From: Alphaproteobacteria bacterium
GTDB taxonomy: Bacteria > Pseudomonadota > Alphaproteobacteria > RF32 > CAG-239
Assembly: GCA_017475525.1 (NCBI GenBank)
Contig: JAFVFH010000036.1
Span: forward strand, 1-52,344
DNA length: 52,344 bases
Direction: 5' to 3'
Part shown: in pieces, positions 125 to 52,344 of the stretch
Layout of the letters: each line of letters begins with the position of its first letter
How positions within the stretch are numbered: the stretch's first letter is position 1
The notes under the pieces: generated by a model
Seen by the model: only the letters and a program-made list of their open reading frames with translations
Database searches by the model: none
What the model was told of the DNA's origin: nothing
Made by a program: the position numbers and the translations under genes

Positions 125-997
125 ATGAAAAAAACAGTTTTGATTTTGAGCTTAATGGTGAGTTTTAATGCCAACGCGTGGGAGCCTTGCGGCACAGATG
201 CCGAGGGCAATACGGCAAACTGCGAATATCAAATTATTGACGGCACATTAACGATTCGCGGTGTCGGTAATAATGGCAATATCGGAAGCTGGTCTAATGA
301 TACAGGAATATTGGCGCCGTGGCGTGGAAAAAATGTCGAGAATGTTGTTATTGAAAACTCAATTAAGGATTTAGGACAAATGGGGTTTGTCTATATAAAA
401 AGCCAAAATCCGATTACTATTCCCAACAGCATAACAACAATTGGCAGTAACGCTTTTTTCGCTGCAGATACTTCGGAAATCATTATTCCTGATAGTGTTA
501 CGGATATTAGTAGTACAGCTTTTAATTGGTCTTCAATCAAAAAAATCGATATTCCGGATTCAGTTAAAATATTAGGTGGGCTTCGAGGGACAAATCTTGT
601 TGATGTTGTTGTTCCGGATTCTGTCGAAAGAATCCGTGATATCGCTTTTTCGTACTGCATAAATCTTCAAAGTTTAACAATAGGTGAAAATACTCAAATA
701 AACCAAATTTTTGATTTTTATGATGAAGAAAGGTCTGAAAATCTTGAAAATCTCAAAATCTATTGCACGGGAGATACAAAAAAATGTGATGCGAATTTAG
801 AAGCGGCAGGTTATGGCGAGCTCAAATCAATCAAGGCGACAACAAAGCAAGTCAACGGGGTGACTTATGTTTATGACAACAAGGGAAAACTTGTGACGAC
901 ATCCGGCAAGCGCAAAGAAAAGCGCATCTACTCAATAGAAGAAGCCTCTCTTGTTTCCAAAAAAACAGGCAATACTTTTAAGTTGAGATACAAATAA
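125..997 (+). CDS. Secreted BspA-type leucine-rich-repeat (LRR_5-like) protein with conserved C-terminal tail
   Basis: AAGGAG RBS precedes the ATG. N-terminal signal peptide (MKKTVLILSLMVSFNANA). CxxxC..DGTLTIRG..APW opening followed by IP(D/N)SVT.I...AF repeats. Ends in KRIYSIEEASLVSKKTGNTFKLRYK, a tail shared with 3 other ORFs here. Confidence 0.8.
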   Translation: MKKTVLILSLMVSFNANAWEPCGTDAEGNTANCEYQIIDGTLTIRGVGNNGNIGSWSNDTGILAPWRGKNVENVVIENSIKDLGQMGFVYIKSQNPITIPNSITTIGSNAFFAADTSEIIIPDSVTDISSTAFNWSSIKKIDIPDSVKILGGLRGTNLVDVVVPDSVERIRDIAFSYCINLQSLTIGENTQINQIFDFYDEERSENLENLKIYCTGDTKKCDANLEAAGYGELKSIKATTKQVNGVTYVYDNKGKLVTTSGKRKEKRIYSIEEASLVSKKTGNTFKLRYK

Positions 998-2514: not shown

Positions 2515-4197
2515 ATGCAAAAAAAATTTTTTATACTGCCTTTGTTTGCTGCTTTTTTACTATCATCTAATGCAAAAGCGCTTGATTGTCCTTCAGGAAC
2601 AGTGGAAGGCACGAGTTGTTGGGCTGTATATGGAAGCGCACAGGCTGCGTATTTGATTAATGGTGTTTTGACCATACCTACGAATAGTTCTTATGCTAGC
2701 GCATCAAGCACACCATGGTATGGTTCTCGAAGTAAAATTACAAGCGTTGTCGTGACAGGCGGTGGTGGCATCGGAGCTTATGCTCTTGGCGGTTTATCAA
2801 AGGTAACAAGCGTGACATTTACCGGAAATACGTCCGGTTACATTTCTAAAAATGCTTTGAATGGTGCAACGTCATTAAAGACGTTGGTAATTCCAAAGGG
2901 AATGATGATTGAAAACGGAACTTTTACAGGATCCGGTGTGACAACGGTTGTTGCAGATAGGGATGCGGGGTTTGCATCAAAATCTTTTACAGGTCTTTCT
3001 TCAAGCGCCGTTTTGTATTGCGAAAGCGGTACAACCTGTTCAAGTGATGCTAAAAAAACAGGTTTTACCGGAACCGTCCGAAGTTATAATATCGACGCTA
3101 ATGGGGTGTATAGCTATAATGGTAAATATTTTGCTTCGGCGGATAATATGGGAAAAAATAATACATCGGGTTGTAGCACTTTGAGTGCCTGCACAACAAC
3201 AGTTAAAAACAACGAAATTGCCAAAATGGTATCCGAAGGAAAATATTGCAACTCAACAAGCACATGTTCGGCTTTATGGGATATGAAATCAAACGGTTAT
3301 TGTAGCGATTATACGGCGTGCAAAAAACTTTCGGATATGAAAAATGACGGCTATTGCACGGATTACAGCGATTGCAAAACGTTAGTCGATATGGCAAATG
3401 CAAAAACGTATTGCAAAACTATAGATACCTGTAAGGCATTGGTTGATATGAAAGCAAACGGTGATTGTGCAGACTATGCCAAATGTGTGAGTTTGCAACA
3501 AATGCAAACAGCCGGATGTGAGGCCGGAACGTATGATGCTTGCCTGAGCTTGTCACAAATGGAAGGTTGTGAGGGCTATACCGAATGTGCAAGCTTGCAA
3601 CAAATGCAAACAGCCGGATGCGAAGCCGGAACATATGAGGCTTGCTTGAGCTTGTCACAAATGGAAGGTTGTGAGGGCTATACCGAATGTGCAAGCTTGC
3701 AACAAATGCAAACAGCCGGATGCGAAGCCGGAACATATGAGGCTTGCTTGAACTTGTCACAAATGGAAGGTTGCTCGGGCTATGCCGAATGTGCCAGCTT
3801 GCAACAAATGCAAACAGCCGGATGTGAGGCCGGAACGTATGAGGTTTGTTTGAAGTTGTCACAAATGCAGACAAATGGCTATTGCGAAGATTACATTTCT
3901 TGTCAAGCTTTGCAGAATATGGCAGATACGAGCGATTTGTGTTCAACGCCGGAAAGTTGTAAAGAACTGATTGATATGTCAAGCGGAACTTTGTGCAACA
4001 CGCTTGAGAGTTGTCATGAGCTTGTGACAATGGCTAATGCTGGCGAAGTATGTTCAACAGCAGAGGAATGTAAAGCGTATCTTCACCAAAAAGCTGAAGA
4101 AGAACGTGCGTCAAAAATCAAGCGTATCTATACTATTGAAGAGGCAACGCGTCTTTCTAAAGAAACCGGCAACAAATTTAAATTAAGATATAAATAA
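2515..4197 (+). CDS. Secreted protein: N-terminal BspA-like LRR region, ~16-unit Cys-rich repeat array, and conserved C-terminal tail
   Basis: AGGAG RBS and signal peptide (LLSSNAKA). About 16 units of C-x5-6-C-x2-L-x2-M-x3-5. Ends in KRIYTIEEATRLSKETGNKFKLRYK. Confidence 0.8.
   Translation: MQKKFFILPLFAAFLLSSNAKALDCPSGTVEGTSCWAVYGSAQAAYLINGVLTIPTNSSYASASSTPWYGSRSKITSVVVTGGGGIGAYALGGLSKVTSVTFTGNTSGYISKNALNGATSLKTLVIPKGMMIENGTFTGSGVTTVVADRDAGFASKSFTGLSSSAVLYCESGTTCSSDAKKTGFTGTVRSYNIDANGVYSYNGKYFASADNMGKNNTSGCSTLSACTTTVKNNEIAKMVSEGKYCNSTSTCSALWDMKSNGYCSDYTACKKLSDMKNDGYCTDYSDCKTLVDMANAKTYCKTIDTCKALVDMKANGDCADYAKCVSLQQMQTAGCEAGTYDACLSLSQMEGCEGYTECASLQQMQTAGCEAGTYEACLSLSQMEGCEGYTECASLQQMQTAGCEAGTYEACLNLSQMEGCSGYAECASLQQMQTAGCEAGTYEVCLKLSQMQTNGYCEDYISCQALQNMADTSDLCSTPESCKELIDMSSGTLCNTLESCHELVTMANAGEVCSTAEECKAYLHQKAEEERASKIKRIYTIEEATRLSKETGNKFKLRYK
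3484..3865 (+). repeat. In-frame tandem repeat, 102-bp period, ~3.7 copies, inside CDS 2515..4197
   Basis: Copies start at 3484, 3586, 3688 and 3790. Each encodes the 34-aa unit CASLQQMQTAGCEAGTYEACLSLSQMEGCEGYTE. Copies 2 and 3 differ at about 5 of 102 nt by eye. Confidence 0.9.
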
Positions 4198-4252: not shown

Positions 4253-5221
4253 TTAAAGCCGTTCGATTTCGCGGGCGGCGTCAATCGCGGCGTTTAAGGA
4301 GCTGTTCGGTTTGAAGTTGATATAGCGCATATCAAGCGGAGCGGCATAGCGGTTTTCATAAAGCGCATGAATAAAACGATAATGTTTCTTTGTGAGCCAG
4401 CTTTTGCCTTCAAACACAAAAACGGGTTTGCTTGTGCCGCAAGCCTCGGAGGTCATCGAAACGGAATCGCCCGTCACAATAATGTTATCGGCACAGGCAA
4501 GATACCCCAAATATGGATTTTCGTTTTTATCGCCCCACAAAAATGTGTGTGCGGGAATATCCTTTAAGGCTTCCATAATGAGCTTTTGTGCATTTTCGCC
4601 GGTGCGGCGTGAAGTTGTAATCAGGATTGAACCACCGATTTTTTTCTTGAAATCTAAAATTTTATCTGCAAGCCCCTTGGCGTTTTCAAGTGTAAACGGG
4701 CGGTCTTTAATCGCACCGCCGACAATAACCGCCGTTAAAGGCTTGGGTAAATCTTTGAAAGTTTCAGCCCATTTGGCTTCAGCCTCGTCTAAAACCTTCG
4801 GTGTCACACGGTGCGGTGCCCCGATTAAATAGCGAAAACTCTTGCGAAATGGTTTGTCTTTATCATGCTCGGGCAACAAAACAAGCGAAAACTCATCCAG
4901 CCCCGTTTCACCGGGGTGCATAATTTGAATAAGTTGCGTTTGAGGATTTTCCTTTTTGATATAGCGTGCAACGGGAACAGTCCGCCGACTGATGGATAAA
5001 ACCATATTCGGCCATGGTGCCTTAAAGAGTTTTTTCGAATCTTGCGTCAGACCCATGAGCGTTCTGCCTCTGACAAAATTCGGGAGACCTGAAAGTTTTG
5101 TATATTCGATTTTTTTCTCAATGATATCGAAATGGTTGTCATTAAGCTGCTGAATAATACCGCGTGCCTGCCCGACGCTTCCCATACGATTATCAATCAA
5201 TACCCATAAAACTTTTTTCAT
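4253..5221 (-). CDS. ELM1/DUF1022-family protein (GT-B-like fold, function unknown)
   Basis: Family-typical motifs recalled from memory: VLWVLIDNRMGSVGQARG, VIVGGAIK, ITTSRRT, NPYLGYLACADNIIVTGDSVSMTSEA, KPVFVF. Confidence 0.55.
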   Translation of the reverse strand: MKKVLWVLIDNRMGSVGQARGIIQQLNDNHFDIIEKKIEYTKLSGLPNFVRGRTLMGLTQDSKKLFKAPWPNMVLSISRRTVPVARYIKKENPQTQLIQIMHPGETGLDEFSLVLLPEHDKDKPFRKSFRYLIGAPHRVTPKVLDEAEAKWAETFKDLPKPLTAVIVGGAIKDRPFTLENAKGLADKILDFKKKIGGSILITTSRRTGENAQKLIMEALKDIPAHTFLWGDKNENPYLGYLACADNIIVTGDSVSMTSEACGTSKPVFVFEGKSWLTKKHYRFIHALYENRYAAPLDMRYINFKPNSSLNAAIDAAREIERL

Positions 5222-10646: not shown

Positions 10647-11360
10647 TTATTTATACCGCAATCTAAATGTATTTCCCGCCGGTTTGGAAACTTTGGTCGC
10701 TTCTTCAAGGGTATAAATACGCTTCGGAATATAGTTTCCGTTTTGCATATCCTTAAAATTGGCATATTTTTTGCCGCTAACAGAGTATCTTCCGTCAGCA
10801 TCTATAGTATATACATGAACGCCGGACGGCTTGCCTAAAGCTTTAAGACACTGCGCCGCAAGATTTTCGGGACAATAAAGCGATGCGTCAGTGTAAAAGG
10901 CATGATCGTCAATATATGTTGTCCCTTGAGGAACGGCAATATTTTCTACAGCAGAATTCATAAAAGCCGCACTGCCGATACGTGTCACCGTTTCAGGAAT
11001 GATGATACTTGTTTCCGCCAATTGGTAAAAAGCTGCTGCCCCGATTGATTCAATACCCTCTGATATCTCAATTCTTGTGATATCAAGCGCATAAGTGCCC
11101 CACGGTGCCGATGTTATATGTTGGCTTGTCCAGTTATTGTAAGGTAATACATATGAGTCAACTTGTTGAGAATAATAATCATACATATCTCCCGTGCCGG
11201 AAATCTCGAGTTTCCCATCACTGTATAGTTTCCAAGTGCAATTATCGCCGCATTTTGTCGTCGCATCATTCGGGTCTGTTTGAGCAATAATTGTTATTTC
11301 ATCGTTTGCCAGTACATTAAAACTTAAAATTAGACCCAAAATTAAAACAGTTTTCTTCAT
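10647..11360 (-). CDS. Secreted BspA-type LRR protein with conserved C-terminal tail
   Basis: Signal peptide. CGDNCTWKLYSDGKLEISGTG..APWG opening followed by LRR_5-like repeats. Ends in KRIYTLEEATKVSKPAGNTFRLRYK. Confidence 0.8.
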   Translation of the reverse strand: MKKTVLILGLILSFNVLANDEITIIAQTDPNDATTKCGDNCTWKLYSDGKLEISGTGDMYDYYSQQVDSYVLPYNNWTSQHITSAPWGTYALDITRIEISEGIESIGAAAFYQLAETSIIIPETVTRIGSAAFMNSAVENIAVPQGTTYIDDHAFYTDASLYCPENLAAQCLKALGKPSGVHVYTIDADGRYSVSGKKYANFKDMQNGNYIPKRIYTLEEATKVSKPAGNTFRLRYK

Positions 11361-17414: not shown

Positions 17415-17477
17415 GTTGAATAATAATAAAAAATTTTGTATAATAAGATAAGTATATGCCCCTTGAGGAGAAATCAG

Positions 17478-19064
17478 ATGACAGATGAGAAAGAAAACAG
17501 AGTAGCCAAACGAGCGCCCGACGGTTATCGCACGATTACTTATCAAGTCGATACGCTTTCCTCAAAAGCCAATGCGGCGGCATACTACCAATCAAGGAGC
17601 AATGCGATTACATCAAATTATGTTATCGGGCAGGATAACACATACAATCAAAGCGATGAAGTCTTGATTCATGAACAAAAGCATCGTAGCAATCAAGAAA
17701 AGGGGTTGTATGCCTATGCCGTCAATTCTGAACAGGCCTATAAATTGCAAATGCATGATGAAATTTCGGCAACAATGGCTTCGATTATTGCCTCGCGGCA
17801 AAAATATCTTGAAACGGGCGATATTTCTGTTTTTGATAACAACTATAATGCTAAATTTTACGCTGACGCTATTAAAAACGGAGAAGTTAATCCTTTCAGC
17901 GATAAAAAAGAAGATTTTGATAAAGAGATGCATTTAATCATGAACGGCACACAAAAATTTTGGTGTGAGAAAAAAGGTTTATCCGATACATACATGAGAG
18001 TATGTGCCACAAACGGATGTATCAGAGCCGAACTTGACGGTAAACACGCGGCTTTTTATGATGAAAATTATGAGCGTGGTAAAAAGATTTGTTATAACAT
18101 CGGCGGTGTTGACTTTACGCAATATATGGATCATGATGTTGAAATACCGGCAGAAGGGCAAAATATGCTCAATGCGAAAATCAATGATAAAATCCAGAAA
18201 ACAGGATATGAACACCTTTCGCATGAAGATTTGGCCATGTTTTACGATGTGCCGGTATATGACGGGAAAATGAGCTTGCAACAATATCAAGATTTGGTGC
18301 AACAAACACTTGCGATGAACAAGGCCTTTAACATCAATAATTCGTCTGTGTTAAGTACGGGAGAAACCGTTGCTACATATGAAAAAACAATGCTGGCTCA
18401 TGCAACGCTGAACAACGAAGGTCTTCAATATGCGCAAAGCGAATATAAAAATGCCATGGAAAGTGCCTTGCCCGTTGCTCAAAATATCACAACAGCGTTG
18501 GCCGAAGAATATAGAGATAAAGGGATAAAAGTCGGTTCAGGCGATAATGAGGCTTATCAGCAGGCTTTGCAAAAGCTGTATACATATTCATATGACAGTT
18601 CAAATATGATAAATTGTGTGCAATATACGGGAGATGTCAATGTTTCCGAAGCGTTAAATCCACAGCAAACACAATATTCATCTGCGATATCGCAGACAGC
18701 TCAGGATGTTCAAAATCTCAGCAAATGGGCGGTTAAGAAGAATCGCGTGTCTCATGTTTTGTATATGAATTTAGGCCCCGAGGTCAAAAACGAACCGGTG
18801 CGAAAAGCAAACAGAGGCTTGCCGCAATATAGAACATGGCAAGATCAAGACGGTTCACGCGTTTCCGAGGTGCAATACAGAGATGTTTTGGATATGAACC
18901 AACCGATTATTAAACAGCCCTCTGCTCAAAGTGCTGAAAACAATAAAACATTGGCAGAGCTTTTGTTGGAAAAGACCGGACGGAAAGATAATCGTTCAGA
19001 TGCGCCCGTTTCTCGTATCACAGATGCGCCTGTATACGTGGTTAAGAAAATAAACACGCGGTAA
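17478..19064 (+). CDS. Hypothetical Q/N/Y-rich protein with an HExxH motif and no signal peptide
   Basis: Own promoter (TTGAAT-17-TATAAT) and GAGGAG RBS before ATG 17478; the 17436 start in the ORF track is TTG. Contains LIHEQKHR. No family recognised. Confidence 0.6.
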   Translation: MTDEKENRVAKRAPDGYRTITYQVDTLSSKANAAAYYQSRSNAITSNYVIGQDNTYNQSDEVLIHEQKHRSNQEKGLYAYAVNSEQAYKLQMHDEISATMASIIASRQKYLETGDISVFDNNYNAKFYADAIKNGEVNPFSDKKEDFDKEMHLIMNGTQKFWCEKKGLSDTYMRVCATNGCIRAELDGKHAAFYDENYERGKKICYNIGGVDFTQYMDHDVEIPAEGQNMLNAKINDKIQKTGYEHLSHEDLAMFYDVPVYDGKMSLQQYQDLVQQTLAMNKAFNINNSSVLSTGETVATYEKTMLAHATLNNEGLQYAQSEYKNAMESALPVAQNITTALAEEYRDKGIKVGSGDNEAYQQALQKLYTYSYDSSNMINCVQYTGDVNVSEALNPQQTQYSSAISQTAQDVQNLSKWAVKKNRVSHVLYMNLGPEVKNEPVRKANRGLPQYRTWQDQDGSRVSEVQYRDVLDMNQPIIKQPSAQSAENNKTLAELLLEKTGRKDNRSDAPVSRITDAPVYVVKKINTR

Positions 19065-19092: not shown

Positions 19093-19122
19093 AAAAAAAG
19101 AGGTCGTCAAGACCTCTTTTTT
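19093..19122. terminator. Bidirectional terminator; identical copy at 21085..21113
   Basis: A-run, AGAGGTC-gtcaa-GACCTCT, T-run. Confidence 0.8.
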
Positions 19123-19141: not shown

Positions 19142-20170
19142 TTATTTATAGCGCAGTTTGAAGGTGTTGCCGGTTGGTTTGGAAACCTTCGTAGCCTCTT
19201 CAATGGTGTAGATGCGCTTGTTTTTATATCCGATGACATTACCGTCTTTATCAACGATAGTATAACTGCCGTCATTTTCATTGTAAATTTCTTTGTTTGA
19301 GCTTCTCATCGGTGCTTGTATCATGTTATATGTTCCTTTTTGATAACCTGCGGTGAGCATGTTCGCCTCACAAACGGAGATTTTTCCGGTGCAATGAATC
19401 GTAATCCCTTCCAATGGAAGATCCCTATCAAAACCATCGGCAAAGAAAATTCGACCATCGCTGTATGATATAACGTAATCGTTTGCATCAGGATATTGGG
19501 TAAAATATGCCATTGCTGCATCAACATCTTTTTGTGTGAAATAACCTGTTTCTATCCTTTCTTGTAATTGAAATTTGCCAAAATCATCGTCATAAATCAT
19601 ATATCTTGGAATTAAAATATCTTTTTCTGATGTTCTGATGGGTGTATGTTCCCCAATAGTGACATCTGTAAGTGGGACATTATAAAAGGCGTATGCTCCT
19701 ATGATCTCGACCGAATCGGGAATATCTATGCTCTGAAGCGATGAGTTTTGAAATGCATGCTCCCCAATTTTAGTTACACTATCTGGAATATTAATAGAAC
19801 TTAAAGTGTGAGATTCAAAGGCAAATTCTCCAATTTCTTTTAGTCCTTCAGGAAGATTCACACTTTGCATATGATTGTAAAATTCAATTCTATATGCAAA
19901 TGCCCCATTAGGTATTCTTTCTATACCTTTTTCAAGAGTTAAAGAAAAATTATCTTCATTAAGTTTGTTGCGAACTTCGTTATTCCAGACTTGTACAAAA
20001 TTTGCCGGTATTGTGTAAGTTATGGATGAATCATTTGGGCCGAGAATAAGTTGCCTCGTTTCGGAATTAAAAGTCCATTTGCAATTAGTGCCACAATCAT
20101 CACCCGTAAGAATTTCGGCATTTGCATGAAAAGTTGCAGCCAACCCCAAAATCAAAATCAATTTTCTCAT
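19142..20170 (-). CDS. Secreted BspA-type LRR protein with conserved C-terminal tail
   Basis: Signal peptide. CGTNCKWTFNSETRQLILG opening followed by IPDSV..IG..AF repeats. Ends in KRIYTIEEATKVSKPTGNTFKLRYK. Confidence 0.8.
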   Translation of the reverse strand: MRKLILILGLAATFHANAEILTGDDCGTNCKWTFNSETRQLILGPNDSSITYTIPANFVQVWNNEVRNKLNEDNFSLTLEKGIERIPNGAFAYRIEFYNHMQSVNLPEGLKEIGEFAFESHTLSSINIPDSVTKIGEHAFQNSSLQSIDIPDSVEIIGAYAFYNVPLTDVTIGEHTPIRTSEKDILIPRYMIYDDDFGKFQLQERIETGYFTQKDVDAAMAYFTQYPDANDYVISYSDGRIFFADGFDRDLPLEGITIHCTGKISVCEANMLTAGYQKGTYNMIQAPMRSSNKEIYNENDGSYTIVDKDGNVIGYKNKRIYTIEEATKVSKPTGNTFKLRYK

Positions 20171-23962: not shown

Positions 23963-25204
23963 TTAAAGCTCATCTTGGAGCAGAAAGTCTTTTAAGCCGA
24001 GTGTTAATATCCCATTATCATCAAAATAAGGCATAATGTCATTTTTTGTGACGATAATTTTCTTAAAACTGTCGTTTATTTTTAAAAGTGGGCGCTTTTC
24101 TTGAATTTGTTTTTCTTCAGTCGGCATTGAAAGTGCAGATTGAATATAATATTTTTTATTACCCTTGTTTGCAATAAAATCCACTTCAATCTTTTTGGGT
24201 TTATAACTCTCATTTGTTTTTTCATAAATATCAAGCTCTCCGATATCTACTTCAAAACCTCTGATTTTTAGCTCATTATAAATCACATTTTCCATAAGAT
24301 GAGATTCTTCAAGTTGCCTGAAATGTAAGCGGGCATTTCTTAACCCGACATCCGTAAAGTAGTATTTTGACGGCGTATTGATATATTTTTTGCCTTTGAT
24401 GTCATAGCGCAAAACTTTATCTAAGATAAATGAATCTTCCAGATAATTAAGATATGTTTTAATCGTTGGAGCTGAAATATCGGAATGTTTGAGAGTTTGA
24501 AATGTGTCTGAGAGCTTTTGCGGATTAATCAGACACCCGACGCATGAAGCAATGATATCTGTCAATTCGCTTAATTCTTGATTGTTTTTAATATTGTTTC
24601 GTTCTTCAATGTCCTTAAAATATGTTTCTAAAAACAAATCTTTCAGATATTTCACTTTTTCATCATCTGTGTTTTGGAGCACGGCAAGAGGCATTCCTCC
24701 GAAAGTATAATACTGACGCCACGCGTCTTCAAAATGATCGCCGAAAGCATCAAAAAATTCTTTAAAACTTAAAGGGAAAACTCTAATTTCGTCACCGCGT
24801 CCGCGAAATTCTGTGACAACATCGGTTGATAAAAATTTTGAATTAGAACCTGTCACATACACGTCTAAATTTTTAATGTGTAAAAAGCCATTTAAAACAT
24901 CTTCAAAATTGCCCATCATTTGCACTTCATCAAGCAAAAGATAGTGCATTTTTTCATCTTTAATGGAAGCTTTAACATATTGATAACAATTATCCGGATT
25001 GCGATATTCACGCTTTGCATAATCATCTAAGGCAAGGTGTATAATATGGTCTTTTTTAACACCGCTGCCCAAAAGGTGTTTTTGGAACAATTCGCTCAGA
25101 AGATATGATTTTCCTGACCGCCGAATACCGCTGATGATTTTAATAAGCCCGTTGTGTTTGTGCGAAATAATTTGATTCAAATATCTGTCTCTTGCAATTT
25201 TCAT
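23963..25204 (-). CDS. AAA-family ATPase with DUF4143-type C-terminal domain
   Basis: Walker A GIRRSGKS. Walker B-like LLLDEVQ. 413 aa overall, matching the AAA_14/DUF4143 architecture as recalled. Confidence 0.7.
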   Translation of the reverse strand: MKIARDRYLNQIISHKHNGLIKIISGIRRSGKSYLLSELFQKHLLGSGVKKDHIIHLALDDYAKREYRNPDNCYQYVKASIKDEKMHYLLLDEVQMMGNFEDVLNGFLHIKNLDVYVTGSNSKFLSTDVVTEFRGRGDEIRVFPLSFKEFFDAFGDHFEDAWRQYYTFGGMPLAVLQNTDDEKVKYLKDLFLETYFKDIEERNNIKNNQELSELTDIIASCVGCLINPQKLSDTFQTLKHSDISAPTIKTYLNYLEDSFILDKVLRYDIKGKKYINTPSKYYFTDVGLRNARLHFRQLEESHLMENVIYNELKIRGFEVDIGELDIYEKTNESYKPKKIEVDFIANKGNKKYYIQSALSMPTEEKQIQEKRPLLKINDSFKKIIVTKNDIMPYFDDNGILTLGLKDFLLQDEL

Positions 25205-28118: not shown

Positions 28119-28655
28119 ATGAACTTAAAAAAGATATTGACTCTGATTGTTTTGTTTTTAAGCGCTTGCCATAGTGCGCCTAAAGAAGAAATTGTGCCGG
28201 CCATTGTGCCGTCGTCGCAAAAAGCCCCTCAAATCAAATATATTCGCCCCTCAAACATCATCGGCGAAATTGAGCCGATTTATATGCTCCCGATGAAATC
28301 GGCGTTTTTAGCACGCGTTGACACGGGCGCAACAACATCTTCAATTGATGTTCAAAATCTCAAACGCTTTGAGCGTGATGGAAAGCGCTGGGTGTCGTTT
28401 TTTGTGGTTAATGCCGCTTCGGGCGAAAAACATTTTTTTGAAAAACCGGTGATTAAAAGAGTGAAAATCAAACGCATTGAAGAAGAAGAACATCGTGTCA
28501 AGGTGATGATGGATGTCAAATTCGGTGGGCAGAAAATGAAAACGGAATTCACCCTTGCCGAGCGTGAGAGCTTCAGCTATCAAGGTCTTATCGGGCGCAA
28601 TATTTTGACCGGTCGATATATTGTCGACACATCTCTTACAAATACGCTGAAATAG
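28119..28655 (+). CDS. Retropepsin-like peptidase lipoprotein (PF05618 'ATP-dependent zinc protease' family, RimB-like)
   Basis: Lipobox LFLSAC. ARVDTGATTSS (DTGA). GLIGRNIL near the C-terminus. Confidence 0.7.
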   Translation: MNLKKILTLIVLFLSACHSAPKEEIVPAIVPSSQKAPQIKYIRPSNIIGEIEPIYMLPMKSAFLARVDTGATTSSIDVQNLKRFERDGKRWVSFFVVNAASGEKHFFEKPVIKRVKIKRIEEEEHRVKVMMDVKFGGQKMKTEFTLAERESFSYQGLIGRNILTGRYIVDTSLTNTLK

Positions 28656-28666
28656 GAAATATTAAT

Positions 28667-30199
28667 ATGAAAAAGCTTTTTACCGTCCGCAAAATTTTGT
28701 CGTTTTTTTTGGCTGTTTCGCTCATATTTACAGCCTATAGTGCATATTACAAAATTAAATTTTGGGGCTTTGATATAAAACCGAACAAAATAACGGAAGT
28801 TTGGACAATTGATGCCCATATTTCATTTAAGGCTTTGGGTAAAGATGTCAATGTATCGCTTGCAACGCCGAGTGTTTCTAAAGAGTTTAAGGTCTTAAAT
28901 GAAGATATTATAGCAAAAAATTATACTTTTTCAAAAGACGAAAAAACAGGACGCATTAAATTCCAAAGCTCTAAGCGCAAAGGAAGGCAAAATATATATT
29001 ATCGCCTGACGGTTTACGACAATGAAGACACAAGAGGGAAGGTTCGAGGAAAAGAGCCTGAAATGCCGGAGCCTCCTTTGTTCGATGAACAACAATTGCA
29101 AATGGCTGAAGAAATCTTACAATCAGCTTCCGTTTTTGAAGGAAGTTTACCTCAAAAGTTGATTTTGCTGTTTAATCAATCTCCGTTAGATGAAACGGTT
29201 GAGGCTTTTTTGCCTGTGAAAGCAAGCTTGCATGAACGTGCAAACATCATTATTGACTTGCTTTCTTTGCAAAAAATACCGGCAAGACTTGTGCGAGGGG
29301 TCAAATTAGTCGAAGGCAAAAAGGCATCGAATGCCGATTTGATGCTCGAAGCGTATGAGGGAAACCGTTGGCGTTTGTATGACCTGCAAACAGCAAAAGA
29401 TGGTTTGCCGAAAAACTTTATTTTGTTTCAACGTGGCGGTGTCTCACTTTTGGATGTAGAAGGAGGAGAAAGATCAACAATCAAGTTCTCGGTCTTAAAA
29501 TCAGTCACTTCTTCGTTTGAAATGGCGGAACATCGTGCAGAGATGAGCTCAACGGCAAAATTATATAACTTCTCTATTTATAGGCTTCCTTTGTTAGAAC
29601 AAAATATTTTAAAATGGCTGATGGTTTTTCCGCTTGGAATTTTAGTTGTTGTTTTCATGCGCAATGTGGTCGGCGTTCCCACCATGGGCACATTTACGCC
29701 GATGCTTATTGCCATGTCGTTTGTTCAAACGGGGTTAAGTGCGGGTTTGGTTTGTTTTTCAATCATTTTATTTATCGGCATTGCTTTGAGAAGCTTGCTT
29801 TCAAAACTTAACTTGCTTTTGGTTCCGCGTATTTCATCGGTCGTGATTTTTGTGATTTTGATTATTCAAACGATGACGGTAATCGGCTATCATTTTGAGC
29901 TTGAAATCAGCTCAGCTGCAGTCTTTTTCCCGATTATCATTACGGCATGGATTATTGAACGCCTTTCAATCATATGGGAAGAAGAAGGCGCTAAAAATGC
30001 CGTGAAAGAAATGTTTTGGACAACCGTTACCGCCTTGGCAACATATTTTGTGATTGCAAGTGAAACAATCCGCCATTTCATGTTTGCGTTTAACGAGGTA
30101 AATTTGGTCATTTTATTTGTCGTTATGTTGCTTGGCACATATACGGGATATCGCCTGACCGAGCTTAAGCGCTTTTATCCTTTAGTGAAAGAAAAATAG
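28667..30199 (+). CDS. Inactive-transglutaminase-like domain fused to a 7TM module
   Basis: N-terminal TM, a ~300-aa extracytoplasmic region, then a C-terminal cluster of ~7 TM helices. 11 nt after the previous gene and abuts the next gene (TAG ATG). Confidence 0.65.
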   Translation: MKKLFTVRKILSFFLAVSLIFTAYSAYYKIKFWGFDIKPNKITEVWTIDAHISFKALGKDVNVSLATPSVSKEFKVLNEDIIAKNYTFSKDEKTGRIKFQSSKRKGRQNIYYRLTVYDNEDTRGKVRGKEPEMPEPPLFDEQQLQMAEEILQSASVFEGSLPQKLILLFNQSPLDETVEAFLPVKASLHERANIIIDLLSLQKIPARLVRGVKLVEGKKASNADLMLEAYEGNRWRLYDLQTAKDGLPKNFILFQRGGVSLLDVEGGERSTIKFSVLKSVTSSFEMAEHRAEMSSTAKLYNFSIYRLPLLEQNILKWLMVFPLGILVVVFMRNVVGVPTMGTFTPMLIAMSFVQTGLSAGLVCFSIILFIGIALRSLLSKLNLLLVPRISSVVIFVILIIQTMTVIGYHFELEISSAAVFFPIIITAWIIERLSIIWEEEGAKNAVKEMFWTTVTALATYFVIASETIRHFMFAFNEVNLVILFVVMLLGTYTGYRLTELKRFYPLVKEK

Positions 30200-31144
30200 A
30201 TGTTTCATCCTCTTAAAATAGCAAAAAAATTGAAAGCATGCGGCATTTTGGGGATGAATGCGCGAAATTACAGTGTGATTTCGGCCTTAAATAAAAGGAG
30301 CCTCTATCCGCTTTTCGATGATAAGGTGCAAACCAAGGAACTGGCCGTAAAAGCCGGCATTAATACCACAAAAAAAATCGGTTTAATAGAATATCAGCAC
30401 CAAGTCAAAAATTTTCGAAATATGGTTCAAGGTTTCTCGGAATTTGTTATTAAACCGGCTCATGGCAGCGGGGGCAAAGGTGTTTTAGTTATCAAAAAGT
30501 GGGATGATAATTGCTTTACGACTGCTTCCGAAAAGCATTTAACGTATACGGAAGTTTATCAACACATTTCAAATATTTTAAGCGGCTTATACAGTTTGGG
30601 CGGGCAGTATGATGTGGCGCTTATTGAAGAAATGGTCCACTTTAGCAATGCATTTGAGCGTTTCAGCTATCAGGGCGTGCCGGATGTCAGACTGATTGTC
30701 TATAAAGGCTATCCGGCAATGGCGATGATGCGTTTGGCAACCTCAGAATCAGGCGGGCGCGCCAATTTGCACCAAGGAGCAGTCGGTGTCGGGCTTGATG
30801 TTAAAACAGGTTCAACACTATGCGCAGTCCAACACAACAAGCCGATAGAATTTCACCCAGATACGAAGGCAGATTTAAAAACACTCAAAGTACCCTTTTG
30901 GAAAGAACATTTATTGATCGCCTCAAAAGCCTATGAAATGACAGGGCTCGGCTATTTGGGAGCAGATATTGTTTTAGATAAAGATAAGGGGCCGATGATG
31001 TTGGAGCTCAATGCACGACCGGGGCTTGCAATTCAGATAGCCAACGCGTCCGGTTTGAAAAAAGCCATTAAAAATATTGATAAGAACTATCCAAAAAATT
31101 TATCGGCTGAGGAAAGGGTTGATTTTATTTTAAGCAAAACTTAA
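30200..31144 (+). CDS. Alpha-L-glutamate ligase-like ATP-grasp protein (RimK-related)
   Basis: GILGMNARN, FVIKPAHGSGGKGV, and MRLATSESGGRANLHQGAVGVG..LGADIVLD..GPMMLELNARPGL. Confidence 0.75.
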   Translation: MFHPLKIAKKLKACGILGMNARNYSVISALNKRSLYPLFDDKVQTKELAVKAGINTTKKIGLIEYQHQVKNFRNMVQGFSEFVIKPAHGSGGKGVLVIKKWDDNCFTTASEKHLTYTEVYQHISNILSGLYSLGGQYDVALIEEMVHFSNAFERFSYQGVPDVRLIVYKGYPAMAMMRLATSESGGRANLHQGAVGVGLDVKTGSTLCAVQHNKPIEFHPDTKADLKTLKVPFWKEHLLIASKAYEMTGLGYLGADIVLDKDKGPMMLELNARPGLAIQIANASGLKKAIKNIDKNYPKNLSAEERVDFILSKT

Positions 31145-31183
31145 ATAAAAAACAAAGGAAATCATTAAAAAAGGAAAAAAACA

Positions 31184-31789
31184 ATGTCGGAACTCTTAAA
31201 AAAGTCAGAAACAAAAAATTTGGGCAAAAGTGAAACAAAAAACATCGCTTCAAATGAGGCTAAAAAGCTTTCAATGAGCGATACTCGAGCCAAAAAAATC
31301 AAGCATTCTTATCATGTCAAGGATCCGGAAAATTCCCTTGTCTTGAAATTAAAAGACGGAGACGTCGTTATTGAGATGTTTGAAGATGTTGCACCCTCAC
31401 ATGTCAAACGCATTAAGGAACTCGTTCGCCAAGGTTTTTATAACGGCCTCAAATTTCATCGTGTGATTGAGGGTTTTATGGCACAAACGGGCTGTCCTTT
31501 AGGCACCGGCACGGGCGGATCGGGCAAAAAACTCAAGGCAGAGTTTAATCAAAAAGAACATAAGCGCGGTACGGTTTCTATGGCAAGAGCAATGAATCCT
31601 GATTCGGCAGACAGCCAATTTTTTATTTGTTTTGCTGATGCGCCATGGCTTAACGGACAATATACCGTTTGGGGTGAAGTAACCGATGGCATGGAATATG
31701 TTGACAACATCAAAAAGGGTGAGGGCTATAACGGAATGGTCGATGATCCTGATATCATTGTCAGCATGAATGTGATAGCGGATTTGTAA
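31184..31789 (+). CDS. Peptidyl-prolyl cis-trans isomerase (cyclophilin type) with ~45-aa Lys-rich N-terminal extension
   Basis: FHRVIEGFMAQTGCPLGTGTGGSG and SQFFICF. The N-terminus contains the duplicated KSETKN. Confidence 0.85.
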   Translation: MSELLKKSETKNLGKSETKNIASNEAKKLSMSDTRAKKIKHSYHVKDPENSLVLKLKDGDVVIEMFEDVAPSHVKRIKELVRQGFYNGLKFHRVIEGFMAQTGCPLGTGTGGSGKKLKAEFNQKEHKRGTVSMARAMNPDSADSQFFICFADAPWLNGQYTVWGEVTDGMEYVDNIKKGEGYNGMVDDPDIIVSMNVIADL

Positions 31790-31856: not shown

Positions 31857-33701
31857 TTATTGACATTTGATACACGTCTCACCGCAACCATTCTTTTTTG
31901 TTGCAATGACGACTTGTCCTTGAGGGCATGTATCGCCGACAAAGAATTTCTCATCATAAGTATCGCAAGTCTTAGCACAGCAAGCCGTTTTATCAGCATT
32001 CATCACATAATGTATGCCTTGCTTCATGCCGGTATCTAACCTGTTATCATCATAACAGTTGAGCAGTTTCGAGTTTGTTACCCCGGCACTGGTGCATGTG
32101 CTGCAATTTCCCCAATCCGGACATTGATCTCCGGGGATATTATAATCCGAACAATTCTTCGGCAGACACTGATTGGTATCATCAGATAGTTCATATCCTT
32201 CTTCACATTTTGTAATTTCATAAAACAACTTGCCGCAAATTTTGCGCTCATTTGAAGAAGCAACATGTTCCGGCAATTGCTCAAGATATTGCGTTGCAAC
32301 AATCTTGCATTCTTTATACTTACCGTTGCAACCCAAGCCGATAAATTCAGAATCACTTTGGTTGTCTGTTTCCGAAGTAGACCATTTATACACGGCATCG
32401 TTTTCATCATATGGACATTGACACAAGCCGCACCACTGTCCGCCACTCTTGAAACCTTCCGGCTCAGGATCAAAATTCCAACCTGTGCCGGCATTGATTT
32501 TTTCTTCACAGTCATCTTTGGATTGATACGCCAGACTGTAATACTTGCCGTCATGTGCGGCAGGGCAGGCAATGGGGTTACAAGCTGTTCCGGCAGCATT
32601 TTTCTGATACCCTTCAAGGGCATTACATTCCCACCCCCACTTGAATTGGCAGGTCACCTCTTGATTATCTTGGCAGCCCTTTCCGCTTCCCATCAAAGCC
32701 ACGGCGCCTTCAGGAACACGAACATCAGTCGGGCAGGCGGATAAACAAGTTTTGTAGTGCTTGCCGTCGCAGGCAACTGTTTCAAACTTGCGATATTCGC
32801 CATTTTCACGCGGCAGAGGATTTTTGTTTCCGTCATACTCATAGTTATCAGGCATCAAATGTTTATATTCTTCCGGTACATTGCATTGACATTCATAGCA
32901 TTGCTTGCCTCCGGTGTTTGTTTTAGCCACTTTTGACCAGCCTTTGGCGGCATCTGTCGAGCATTCCAAGGCATCATCTGATTCATACTGTCCTTCAGGA
33001 CACCCGAGTTCAACGCAACTGGTTCCTTCTTCCTTGAAACCGTTCTTGCATTCCCAGTTGACAATCACTTTCTTTGTTCCGCCACAACTGCAAGTCACAT
33101 TTTCTGTAATAGGGGTTGCATTTTCCGGCACCTCATATTTGGCAATACAGCTTGTTTCTTTGCAACCGGTCACATCTAAACAGCGAACTTTGTTCGGGTT
33201 TGACGGGCACGGGAGATATGTATTGCATTCGGTAATGGAGTTTGTGTATCCGAGCTCGGCGCAAATACTCTTATCATTTTTTAAGGTGTCAACAACACCA
33301 CCGCAACCTTCAGGATTGATAAACCCCGGACCGCATTGGCATTTAAAGCAGACGATATCAGCGTTCGAAACTTTTTCACATTCCATATCAGCCGGCTTCG
33401 TTTCAAACAATCCGAAATCTTTACAAGACCATAGCGTGCAACTTAATTTTGTTTTGTCGAACGGACACGCAATACCGCCGTAGGGGCAAGAAGTTGCGGT
33501 ATATCCTAGAGTCGCACATTGTAAGTTGTTCTGAACACAGAGCTCAGATTTATAAGATGTAATCTGTTGTGAATTGGGCGACAAATATGAAAGGGCAGAA
33601 GGCGCATAGCGTGCCAAAATACCCGACACACCGGAACCATCATTTGTTGTTTGTGCTTGTGCCGAAAAAGCAAAGAGCATTAAAAATAAAACCAGTTTCA
33701 T
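31857..33701 (-). CDS. Large secreted cysteine-rich protein (~70 Cys in 614 aa), no recognised family
   Basis: GGGGGA RBS before ATG 33701. Signal peptide MKLVLFLMLFAFSAQA. Recurring C-x2-C-Q-C punctuation (FKCQC, YECQC, GLCQC, IKCQ) and C.(T/E)LGYT motifs. Confidence 0.7.
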   Translation of the reverse strand: MKLVLFLMLFAFSAQAQTTNDGSGVSGILARYAPSALSYLSPNSQQITSYKSELCVQNNLQCATLGYTATSCPYGGIACPFDKTKLSCTLWSCKDFGLFETKPADMECEKVSNADIVCFKCQCGPGFINPEGCGGVVDTLKNDKSICAELGYTNSITECNTYLPCPSNPNKVRCLDVTGCKETSCIAKYEVPENATPITENVTCSCGGTKKVIVNWECKNGFKEEGTSCVELGCPEGQYESDDALECSTDAAKGWSKVAKTNTGGKQCYECQCNVPEEYKHLMPDNYEYDGNKNPLPRENGEYRKFETVACDGKHYKTCLSACPTDVRVPEGAVALMGSGKGCQDNQEVTCQFKWGWECNALEGYQKNAAGTACNPIACPAAHDGKYYSLAYQSKDDCEEKINAGTGWNFDPEPEGFKSGGQWCGLCQCPYDENDAVYKWSTSETDNQSDSEFIGLGCNGKYKECKIVATQYLEQLPEHVASSNERKICGKLFYEITKCEEGYELSDDTNQCLPKNCSDYNIPGDQCPDWGNCSTCTSAGVTNSKLLNCYDDNRLDTGMKQGIHYVMNADKTACCAKTCDTYDEKFFVGDTCPQGQVVIATKKNGCGETCIKCQ

Positions 33702-33801
33702 GAGGCGTCCCCCTTCTTCAAAGATATCTGAAACAATAGTAACATAGTTTAACTTTTTTTTCAACTCAAAATAATATTTTTTCGAAAAACGTCACAAAAA
33801 A

Positions 33802-36976: not shown

Positions 36977-37627
36977 ATGATGAATAAAGAAAATGGTCGT
37001 TCTATGGTCGAAATGCTGGGTGTTTTGGCGATTGTCGGGGTATTGAGCGCAGGTGCTTTGGCAGGCTATTTGAAAGCAATGACGCAACATAAACTCAATA
37101 AACATACACAAGAAATCAGTTATCTTTTGGCAACGGCAATTTATAATCAAGACAAAATCATTGATACAAATTCACAAGAAGAGTACATATCAGCTTTAGA
37201 TGCTCTTGGAGCTTTTACATGGACGACAAATTTGCAAAATCAAGGAGAATCAACATATAAAATCATGACAGACAGCCTTCAAAATACCATATCTTTTGAG
37301 CACAGTGCAGGTAGCGGTACGGCCTTTGTTGTCATTTTAAATAAGTCTGATTTCAGGATGAAGGTGTGTTACAATTATATCAACATTTTCAAAAACCTTT
37401 CAAATGAACTCGACGTAATTTATGTAACAAGAAGTAAAACAGGACAAGCAAAAGAGAGAAATACATATATTGGCAAAACATGCACATCAGAAAAATGTTT
37501 GGAAACTATAACAAATACTGATATTTCAGAACTTTGCGGACAAGTGTGTGATGACGCGGACAGGTGTGTTTTATATGCCCTTTGGGGTTATCCTGCATCA
37601 ACAGTGGCAGGTTTGCTCGGGCAATAA
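36977..37627 (+). CDS. Type IV pilin/pseudopilin-like protein with non-canonical prepilin signal
   Basis: MMNKENG|RSMVEMLGVLAIVGVLSAGALAGY: Gly, then Glu at +5, then a hydrophobic helix. Arg at +1 is unusual. Cys-rich C-terminus. Confidence 0.6.
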   Translation: MMNKENGRSMVEMLGVLAIVGVLSAGALAGYLKAMTQHKLNKHTQEISYLLATAIYNQDKIIDTNSQEEYISALDALGAFTWTTNLQNQGESTYKIMTDSLQNTISFEHSAGSGTAFVVILNKSDFRMKVCYNYINIFKNLSNELDVIYVTRSKTGQAKERNTYIGKTCTSEKCLETITNTDISELCGQVCDDADRCVLYALWGYPASTVAGLLGQ

Positions 37628-51928: not shown

Positions 51929-52344
51929 ATGAAAAAATTAGTTTTTATTTTTTGGGTGGTTGTTATGTTATTATCTTTTAATACAATGGCTAAAGTAACT
52001 GGTGGTAGTTGTTCCAATGATGGATGTCAATGGTCATATAACAGTGATACCAAAGAACTGACAATTACAGGAAACGGCGCGAGTGTTATGGATAACTATA
52101 CGCCATATTCTAAAGAAAATCCTGTTCCGTGGGCTGCTTATCATGAGGAAATTGAAAGCGTTTCTGTCAGCGGATTAAAATCAACCGGAGATAGAGCTTT
52201 TCTTTTTCATACGGCATTGACAGATGTTTCACTTTCTGAAGGATTGCAGACATTAAATTTTGGTGCTTTTTATGGCGCAAGCAGTTTGGAAAACGTCAAT
52301 CTTCCTGCCTCACTAACACAAATCGGTGATAGAGCTTTCCACCA
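51929..52344 (+). CDS. Secreted BspA-type LRR protein, 5' part only (runs off the window)
   Basis: AAGGAG RBS and signal peptide. CSNDGCQWSYNSDTKELTITGNG...PVPWAAY opening followed by LRR_5-like repeats. The C-terminus is not visible. Confidence 0.75.
   Translation, partial: MKKLVFIFWVVVMLLSFNTMAKVTGGSCSNDGCQWSYNSDTKELTITGNGASVMDNYTPYSKENPVPWAAYHEEIESVSVSGLKSTGDRAFLFHTALTDVSLSEGLQTLNFGAFYGASSLENVNLPASLTQIGDRAFH

Follow-up and report, generated by a model that had tools for sequence, protein, structure and literature searches.

In the window studied here, a stretch of 52,344 nucleotides taken from contig JAFVFH010000036.1 of an uncultured alphaproteobacterium, four proteins end in variants of one peptide of 25 residues, a hydrophilic tail that opens with the motif KRIY and finishes on a basic residue. 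This tail is a real, strongly selected and undescribed feature of narrow range, which recurs at the extreme C-terminus of exported proteins in a group of uncultured bacteria and takes a form particular to each genome. We hypothesize, with chances that we judge about even, that it is a portable C-terminal docking or sorting tag, which folds on binding one envelope partner shared by all its carriers.

The C-terminal tail and its carriers

Four complete open reading frames (ORFs) whose translations each end in the 25-residue tail are present in the window, as a sequence-only reading of this DNA had claimed. On the plus strand, 125..997 encodes a protein of 290 residues with leucine-rich repeats (LRR) of the BspA type (tail codons 920-994; C-terminus KRIYSIEEASLVSKKTGNTFKLRYK), and 2515..4197 a protein of 560 residues with a Cys-repeat array (tail codons 4120-4194; C-terminus KRIYTIEEATRLSKETGNKFKLRYK). 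That reading had given no strand, and the other two genes lie on the minus strand, their plus-strand translations being full of stops. These are 10647..11360, encoding a BspA-type LRR protein of 237 residues (tail codons 10650-10724; C-terminus KRIYTLEEATKVSKPAGNTFRLRYK), and 19142..20170, whose ORF translates into a secreted BspA-type LRR protein of 342 residues, with the tail KRIYTIEEATKVSKPTGNTFKLRYK at residues 318-342 (19145..19219, minus strand) immediately followed by the stop codon at 19142-19144. The last gene is also called on two ENA metagenome contigs, and its product begins with a Sec-type signal peptide, MRKLILILGLAATFHANA (20117..20170, minus strand), which lacks a lipobox and whose cut after ANA was placed by eye. 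In a six-frame scan of the window the tail motif was absent beyond these four ORFs. A further ORF, 51929..52344 on the plus strand, is cut by the window end after 138 visible residues and had been taken for a truncated fifth family member; in agreement with this, it is 93% identical over 138 residues to the N-terminus of P0186, a tail carrier of 409 residues with the C-terminus KRIYTIDEANAVAKPTGNTVRIRYK.

The regions that precede the tail, here called passengers, had been described as LRR only or as LRR plus a Cys-repeat array. Matches to Pfam LRR_5 (PF13306), for which the cutoff is 27.7 bits, were obtained for 19142..20170 (80.2 bits; E=1.6e-22, residues 76-175), 125..997 (76.5), 10647..11360 (50.7) and the truncated ORF at 51929 (38.9). 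The Cys-repeat array of 2515..4197 was likewise found. Its LRR part needs correction, however: no LRR_5 match to this protein is significant in Pfam, and the similarity of its N-terminal part to the LRR paralogs is weak (about 50 bits in BLAST). The array corresponds to a tandem repeat of 102 bp in 3.9 copies at 3474-3867 (92% matches), which codes for a Cys-containing unit of 34 residues, CASLQQMQTAGCEAGTYEACLSLSQMEGCEGYTE, and looks like a recent expansion within the passenger of a surface protein.

The anatomy of the tail was derived from 233 unique sequences. It is a strictly C-terminal peptide of 24-26 residues, KRIYT[IV][ED]EA...N...[RK]Y[KR]-end, in which 25 residues is the most frequent length (74%), followed by 24 (24%) and 26 (2%). 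Its N-terminal half has K at 99%, R at 96% and I, Y and T at 98% each, then [VI] and [ED], E at 99% and A at 98%, two variable positions, [VL] and [SA]. The C-terminal half comprises a turn of 4-6 residues with Asn at position -8 in all tails, then [FVI] at -6, any residue, [LI] at -4 and [RK] at -3, and it closes with Tyr at -2 (99%) and [KR] at -1 (100%). The final residue is Lys in 129 tails (55%) and Arg in 104 (45%), and in loci L001-L077 Lys at -3 pairs with Arg at -1 (38 KYR versus 5 KYK); the mean net charge of the tail is +4. The spacing from the core motif to the end is 24-26 residues in 232 of the 233 tails, and in all 82 metagenome occurrences the stop codon stands exactly that far behind the core motif. 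The sequences suggest four elements in order: first a short strand, then an amphipathic helix capped by Thr, a turn, and finally a basic strand, also amphipathic, whose hydrophobic face consists of F, L and Y. It had also been claimed that the tail has no hydrophobic helix, and this is borne out by the 126 family members on which carrier statistics were based: the top Kyte-Doolittle window of 15 residues in the last 40 reaches just 0.51.

Among these carriers, 112 have a signal-peptide-like N-terminus, four a lipobox-like motif and none a further transmembrane-like segment, so that, judging from sequence, they are probably soluble Sec-exported proteins that have neither lipid anchor nor transmembrane segment. 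The passenger matches LRR_5 in 95 of the 126. Other carriers, for instance P0140, P0223, P0224 and P0251, have LRR-free arrays of YD/RHS repeats, and still others have Cys-repeat arrays or uncharacterised regions. Because the tail follows such varied passengers, sometimes through low-complexity linkers (P0245, L027, P0266), the autonomous unit is the 24-26-residue tail alone. Another gene of the window, 31857-33764 (minus strand), encodes a Cys-rich protein of 635 residues with a signal peptide and no Pfam or NCBIfam match. It ends in ...CIKCQ and lacks the KRIYT tail; therefore, the secreted repeat proteins of this genome do not all bear the tag.

Structure prediction for the 19142..20170 protein with AlphaFold2 gave a mean predicted local distance difference test score (pLDDT) of 77 for the full protein and 69 for a model of its last 58 residues. 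In both models a short helix forms on IEEATKV (residues 322-328), and the 13 residues at the very end are coil; there the pLDDT drops to about 50 when the full protein is modelled and stays near 70 for the short C-terminal piece. The lack of a confident fold at this end would be expected of a peptide that folds upon binding. Directly before the tail, AlphaFold2 predicts a YD-like beta-hairpin, DGSYTIVDKDGNVIGYK (residues 292-315; 19226..19297, minus strand), with strands at 292-296, 301-305 and 311-315 and a pLDDT of 83-87. This hairpin is one of three alternative contexts preceding the tail and is outside the minimal tag, since in other carriers a different or low-complexity sequence takes its place.

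Taken together, the frequency of LRR_5 passengers and the folded hairpin that precedes the tail in many carriers could suggest that the tail structurally caps the C-terminus of a single, expanding paralog family, in which it would be conserved for packing on the preceding repeats and would have no intermolecular role. That the strand-helix start is a common local structure is also indicated by the segment KIYTIDEA of ribosomal protein L1, which a tail profile matches with an E-value of about 1. A cap would nevertheless not be expected behind unrelated folds, several times at the end of long low-complexity linkers, and neither model packs the final 13 residues with confidence. Moreover, the tail is missing from LRR_5 homologues outside the clade, and a genome-wide switch of tail version over unrelated passengers, as described below, is unexpected for a private intramolecular contact. 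We therefore consider a cap very unlikely.

Distribution and genome-specific dialects of the tail

A profile built from 18 tails was used in an exhaustive hidden Markov model (HMM) search of 1.84 billion cluster representatives, which was needed because a word-indexed search with the tail returned short fragments only. At E<=1e-3 it gave 708 cluster matches, of which 217 pass E<=1e-10. Among the 150 matches listed, the alignment reaches the last residue of the protein in 149; the sole exception, P0138, is a low-complexity false positive, and 708 is therefore an upper bound. In a search of 185,579 species genomes all 77 loci kept fell within nine metagenome-assembled genomes (MAGs), which belong to closely related uncultured Alphaproteobacteria of the ruminant gut, from cattle, yak, reindeer and similar hosts. 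Housekeeping proteins of the related MAGs are 79-95% identical to those of the window, and they thus form a group of genus or family level. One of these genomes, RUG13121, has at least 41 distinct tail carriers in the 312 kb examined. A scan of JGI metagenomes confirmed 132 matches; the 80 loci that were kept come from only a few data sets and contain the 82 metagenome occurrences cited above. No relatives were found on the viral contigs searched. When the full protein was used as query, LRR_5 homologues of many taxa dominated the result and only five of the 120 listed carried the tail, which is thus not an integral part of the LRR_5 family. The single RefSeq-type member, P0036, is named by NCBI simply a 'leucine-rich repeat domain-containing protein'. 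The HMM scan proposed in the sequence-only reading hence found a distribution well beyond a few paralogs of the window, with up to 708 clusters, nine MAG species and several metagenomes.

Comparison of the four window tails revealed that each pair differs synonymously at 8-14 of the 25 codons and non-synonymously at 3-7, and that the tails share 72-88% of their amino acids versus about 30% for the passengers. Accordingly, the claim that synonymous divergence between the tails points to selection on the peptide holds.

In addition, each genome has its own version of the tail, a dialect that follows the genome and not the passenger type (loci L001-L077, from RUG13121, RUG11221, UBA3773 and others). 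The typical ending is ..SKPTGNTFKLRYK in the window, bin.135 and the Reindeer MAG, ..AKPTGNTVRIKYR in RUG11221, ..AGKTNTFSIRYR in RUG13121, where the tail has 24 residues, and ..GKNNKNTFSIRYR in UBA3773, where it has 26. Over the final 16 residues, tails of the same genome have an identity of 0.64, as against 0.40 for tails of different genomes. The effect is well illustrated by a fragment of RUG11221 (L032), the last 65 passenger residues of which are 88% identical to those of 10647..11360, and which ends in TVRIKYR in place of TFRLRYK, that is, in the RUG11221 dialect. Gene conversion was considered as the source of the dialects and ruled out by counts of synonymous sites: in every genome about half of the codons for the same residue differ synonymously, and no pair of tails within a genome exceeds 95% nucleotide identity, so that recent conversion does not account for them. 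The dialects are, as far as these sequences indicate, probably kept by selection for compatibility with something common inside each genome.

The dialects also bear on how the tail might be attached. Lpp, the Braun lipoprotein of E. coli, ends in ...YRK and is linked to peptidoglycan through its terminal Lys, and Alphaproteobacteria rely heavily on L,D-transpeptidases. The four tails of the window end in RYK, and the tail resembles Lpp in its short basic C-terminus with a Tyr beside the terminal basic residues, which together could suggest a covalent link to peptidoglycan through the C-terminal Lys, catalysed by an L,D-transpeptidase. Such anchoring would require a terminal Lys, whereas 45% of the unique tails (104 of 233) end in Arg, and in RUG13121 35 of 41 tails end in RYR, while most of those in RUG11221 end in KYR; as a general mechanism it is ruled out by these Arg-ending dialects. 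Furthermore, Lpp needs an N-terminal lipid anchor, while the carriers are not lipoproteins (4 of 126 with a lipobox-like motif), and attachment to peptidoglycan would keep adhesin-like passengers in the periplasm. We regard this explanation as extremely unlikely.

A different source of compatibility within a genome would be binding of the tails to each other, so that carriers, different paralogs among them, would form dimers, trimers or a surface lattice that raises the avidity of adhesins. C-terminal oligomerisation units of this size exist, such as the 27-residue foldon of T4 fibritin, and an amphipathic helix followed by an end strand could make an interface; the need for tails of one genome to remain compatible would also explain the dialects. 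On the other hand, the tail has a mean net charge of +4 and its end strand exposes an entirely basic face, which disfavours self-association unless a counter-charged partner is present, and the exact [KR] terminus is not obviously needed for it. Thus, we find a foldon-like role in oligomerisation or co-assembly rather improbable.

The docking tag that we favour would work as follows. Carriers would be exported by Sec and their signal peptide removed by signal peptidase I. In the tail, K-R-I-Y would be a short strand and T-[IV]-[ED]-E-A-x-x-[VL]-[SA] an amphipathic helix with a Thr cap; a turn containing the invariant Asn(-8) would lead to phi-x-phi-[RK]-Y-[KR]-COOH, the basic and amphipathic end strand. 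Being too small for a stable domain, the tail would fold on binding one genome-encoded component of the envelope, most likely an outer-membrane or periplasm-facing protein. This putative partner would read the end strand together with the free C-terminus and would either carry the passenger over the outer membrane or keep it at the cell surface, where the fast-evolving LRR, YD-repeat and Cys-repeat passengers may serve as adhesins that bind cells of the host or of a partner. LRR proteins of the BspA and LrrA types are surface adhesins in other bacteria (PMC2843621).

Several observations weigh against such a docking tag. About 75% of the carriers have one passenger type, LRR_5, and family descent therefore explains part of the distribution; the clade is narrow, and the dialects could come partly from the shared ancestry of expansions within each genome. 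The low confidence of the AlphaFold2 tail is weak evidence for folding on a partner. When 662 ORFs from 78 sources were clustered, no partner, sortase-like enzyme or conserved neighbour of the tail genes emerged, and from sequence export, retention or neither are not distinguishable. With respect to the sorting or anchoring tag suggested by the sequence-only reading, selection on the peptide and the lack of a hydrophobic helix and of any known match all stand, and the unrelated passengers and the dialects add support, whereas the function is something that we infer. As to the more specific label, a new outer-membrane translocation or surface-anchoring system of diderms that reads the free C-terminus and whose receptor co-evolves by genome, we put it forward as a tentative and somewhat doubtful possibility.

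Host and genomic neighbourhood

The window is ordinary chromosome of 40% G+C, and its sequence is also found on two ENA metagenome contigs. Its genes encode RNase E, PheST, ProS, RuvAB, ribosomal proteins L20 and S1, AmiC-type amidases, an OprB/AaxA-like porin, a BepA-like protease of the M48 type with tetratricopeptide repeats and Liv-type ABC transporters. The hosts are most probably diderms that make lipopolysaccharide (LPS), because RUG13121 encodes an LptB equivalog whose score exceeds the curated cutoff; the porin and the BepA-like protease accompany LptB as signs of a diderm host. Small-genome Proteobacteria of the rumen, UBA3773 among them, were noted by Stewart et al. (PMC6785717), and for the order Rs-D84, gut Alphaproteobacteria of reduced genome to which the window is not confirmed to belong, dependence on a partner has been proposed (PMC12306168).

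Tail genes are single insertions amid housekeeping genes, and 19142..20170 has its own terminator-like hairpin. This element, at 19094..19122, has a stem of 12 bp and a T run on each strand, and would be bidirectional, an assignment made by consensus match only; it sits between 19142..20170 (minus strand) and the convergent gene 17436-19064 (plus strand). The latter is an orphan ORF of 542 residues with an HEQKH motif of the HExxH type, for which neither a signal peptide nor a family match was found. In the neighbour clustering mentioned above, the families recovered were limited to ABC ATPases, pilin-like proteins and housekeeping genes in synteny (pheST/proS, oppB, rpsA, lon, dnaK, PBP1a and serS).

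The pilin- or pseudopilin-like family is multi-copy, with members at 36977-37627 (plus strand) in the window and at L010:3734-4306, L031:11295-11873, L044:2482-3662 (two genes), L062:810-1466 and L074:6793-7425. Its members share the N-terminus ...GRSMVEMLGVLAI(I/V)GVLSAG, with Glu at +5, followed by variable Cys-containing C-terminal parts, and their sole family match is a weak one to the NCBIfam entry 'prepilin peptidase-dependent protein'. The family may point to a machine of the type II secretion system (T2SS) or type IV pilus kind in these reduced genomes.

These genes are compatible with T2SS-type export, which raises the question of whether the cationic tail could act, after general export by such a route, as a non-specific electrostatic anchor on LPS, capsule or peptidoglycan. 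The net charge of +4, an LPS-making host and the absence of a dedicated partner gene among the tail-gene neighbours would fit this explanation, even though a T2SS core gene was not seen in the sequence examined. However, the most conserved positions of the tail are uncharged (I, Y, T, A, N and Y, 98-100%) and the basic ones swap among K, R and S, so that a stereospecific interface fits better than charge alone, and the dialects include changes in loop length (24, 25 and 26 residues). An anchor of this sort is in our view rather unlikely.

Other neighbours may be of interest in their own right. An operon at 28119-31789 (plus strand) encodes a RimB-like Zn protease, a fusion of seven transmembrane segments with an inactive transglutaminase and an ATPgrasp_ST ligase of the RimK/TTL-like kind, after which comes a cyclophilin gene. 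The block recurs in RUG13121 (L010:2-2090), with a tail-bearing gene directly downstream. ATP-grasp ligases of the RimK/TTL kind modify protein C-termini; no evidence connecting the ligase of this operon to the tail was seen. Neighbours of other tail genes encode an [FeFe]-hydrogenase and a DsbD-type disulfide reductase (L063:1-1611 and L011:19-1782), a combination that fits an anaerobic fermenter handling disulfide-rich exported proteins. The window further contains an AAA_14/DUF4143 ATPase (23963-25204, minus strand) and a glycosyltransferase-like gene of the ELM1 family (Mito_fiss_Elm1; 4253-5221, minus strand), both amid housekeeping genes and with no evident connection to the tail.

Comparison with known families and sorting systems

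The claim that the tail corresponds to no known C-terminal domain or sorting signal is in agreement with the databases searched. Pfam 2025 gave nothing for the tail at E<=10, whether full proteins or isolated tails were used, and NCBIfam 20.0, searched at E<=1 with the five window proteins, gave only LRR adhesin-type and unrelated weak matches; isolated tails had no NCBIfam match either. Against the sequences of the PDB, the tail profile recovered only the ribosomal protein L1 segment cited above; homology to L1 was rejected as a chance-level match, and the likeness is taken as a local strand-helix resemblance. The moderately confident C-terminal model of 58 residues had no match at E<=0.001 to PDB folds in Foldseek. 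A resemblance of T-x-E-E-A to the N-terminus of HTH_17 and excisionases, noticed by eye, was dropped, given that no profile matched at E<=10 and that the proteins are exported. In the literature on UBA3773, Enterousia and BspA in rumen Alphaproteobacteria, no description of the tail was found.

Tags common to many secreted proteins have earlier led to the sortases, the exosortases, rhombosortase and the type IX secretion system (T9SS). The present tag has the same genomic signature, being terminal, multi-copy, portable and clade-restricted, and its short, hydrophilic and basic architecture fits none of those systems. Like the signals of LPXTG/sortase, PEP-CTERM/exosortase and GlyGly-CTERM/rhombosortase, it is strictly C-terminal, restricted to a clade and present in many copies on unrelated secreted proteins. 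Those tripartite signals need a signature motif, a hydrophobic transmembrane helix, a basic cluster and a dedicated processing enzyme, whereas the tail has no hydrophobic segment and no NCBIfam match, and no enzyme was identified for it. A type I secretion signal, which is C-terminal and works with no Sec signal peptide, was rejected in view of the signal-peptide-like N-termini of 112 of the 126 carriers. The tail is also unlike the barrel of an autotransporter (type V secretion system), as had been stated: Pfam detects no barrel domain, and in these proteins of 237-560 residues the repeats run up to the tail. In its last strand, which is amphipathic and in which hydrophobic residues alternate, the tail resembles the C-terminal beta-signal of outer-membrane beta-barrel proteins. 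The motif G-N-T-F-K-L of the 25-residue class fits GxxOmega-x-Phi, with G at -9, F/V at -6 and L/I at -4, while in the 24-residue class the Gly is at -11. Nevertheless, the final residue of a beta-signal is aromatic and the signal is part of a barrel, in contrast to the tail, which ends in K or R after Tyr(-2) in 233 of 233 cases and is borne by soluble repeat proteins.

If the tail does belong to a new translocation or anchoring system, this would be the means by which gut Alphaproteobacteria of reduced genome, possibly partner-dependent, display a large and fast-evolving repertoire of adhesins. The tag sits on the apparent main surface repertoire of abundant uncultured small-genome bacteria of the rumen and gut. 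It is in any case an easy marker with which adhesin-like proteins can be catalogued, and a handle towards the partner that would export or hold them.

The closest functional analogues are, by comparison, probably the C-terminal domain (CTD) of the T9SS and the dockerins, and the tail appears to belong to neither. The CTD is the sorting signal of Bacteroidota and is borne by BspA of Tannerella. It shares with the tail its C-terminal position, its occurrence on Sec-exported and often BspA-type LRR surface proteins, the diderm envelope and the many carriers per genome. However, the CTD is a beta-sandwich of 70-100 residues read by PorV and the sortase PorU, and it is restricted to the Bacteroidota-type T9SS, whereas the conserved unit of 24-26 residues is a quarter of that size, far shorter as the sequence-only reading had noted, has no match to a CTD in NCBIfam and is found in Alphaproteobacteria. 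Dockerins are domains of about 60-70 residues from Firmicutes with two Ca-binding loop-helix repeats (PF00404), a family that matched neither tail-bearing proteins nor isolated tails at E<=10; the tail, in contrast, has 24-26 residues, lacks a Ca-binding motif, occurs in a diderm alphaproteobacterium and has no known cohesin-like partner. Like the tail, dockerins are found in rumen organisms and are C-terminal additions to many secreted proteins of one organism, all of which address one common receptor. In fact, their species-specific variants, which co-evolve with that receptor, are the closest parallel to the dialects of the tail, and these dialects offer a natural co-variation experiment for identifying the partner.

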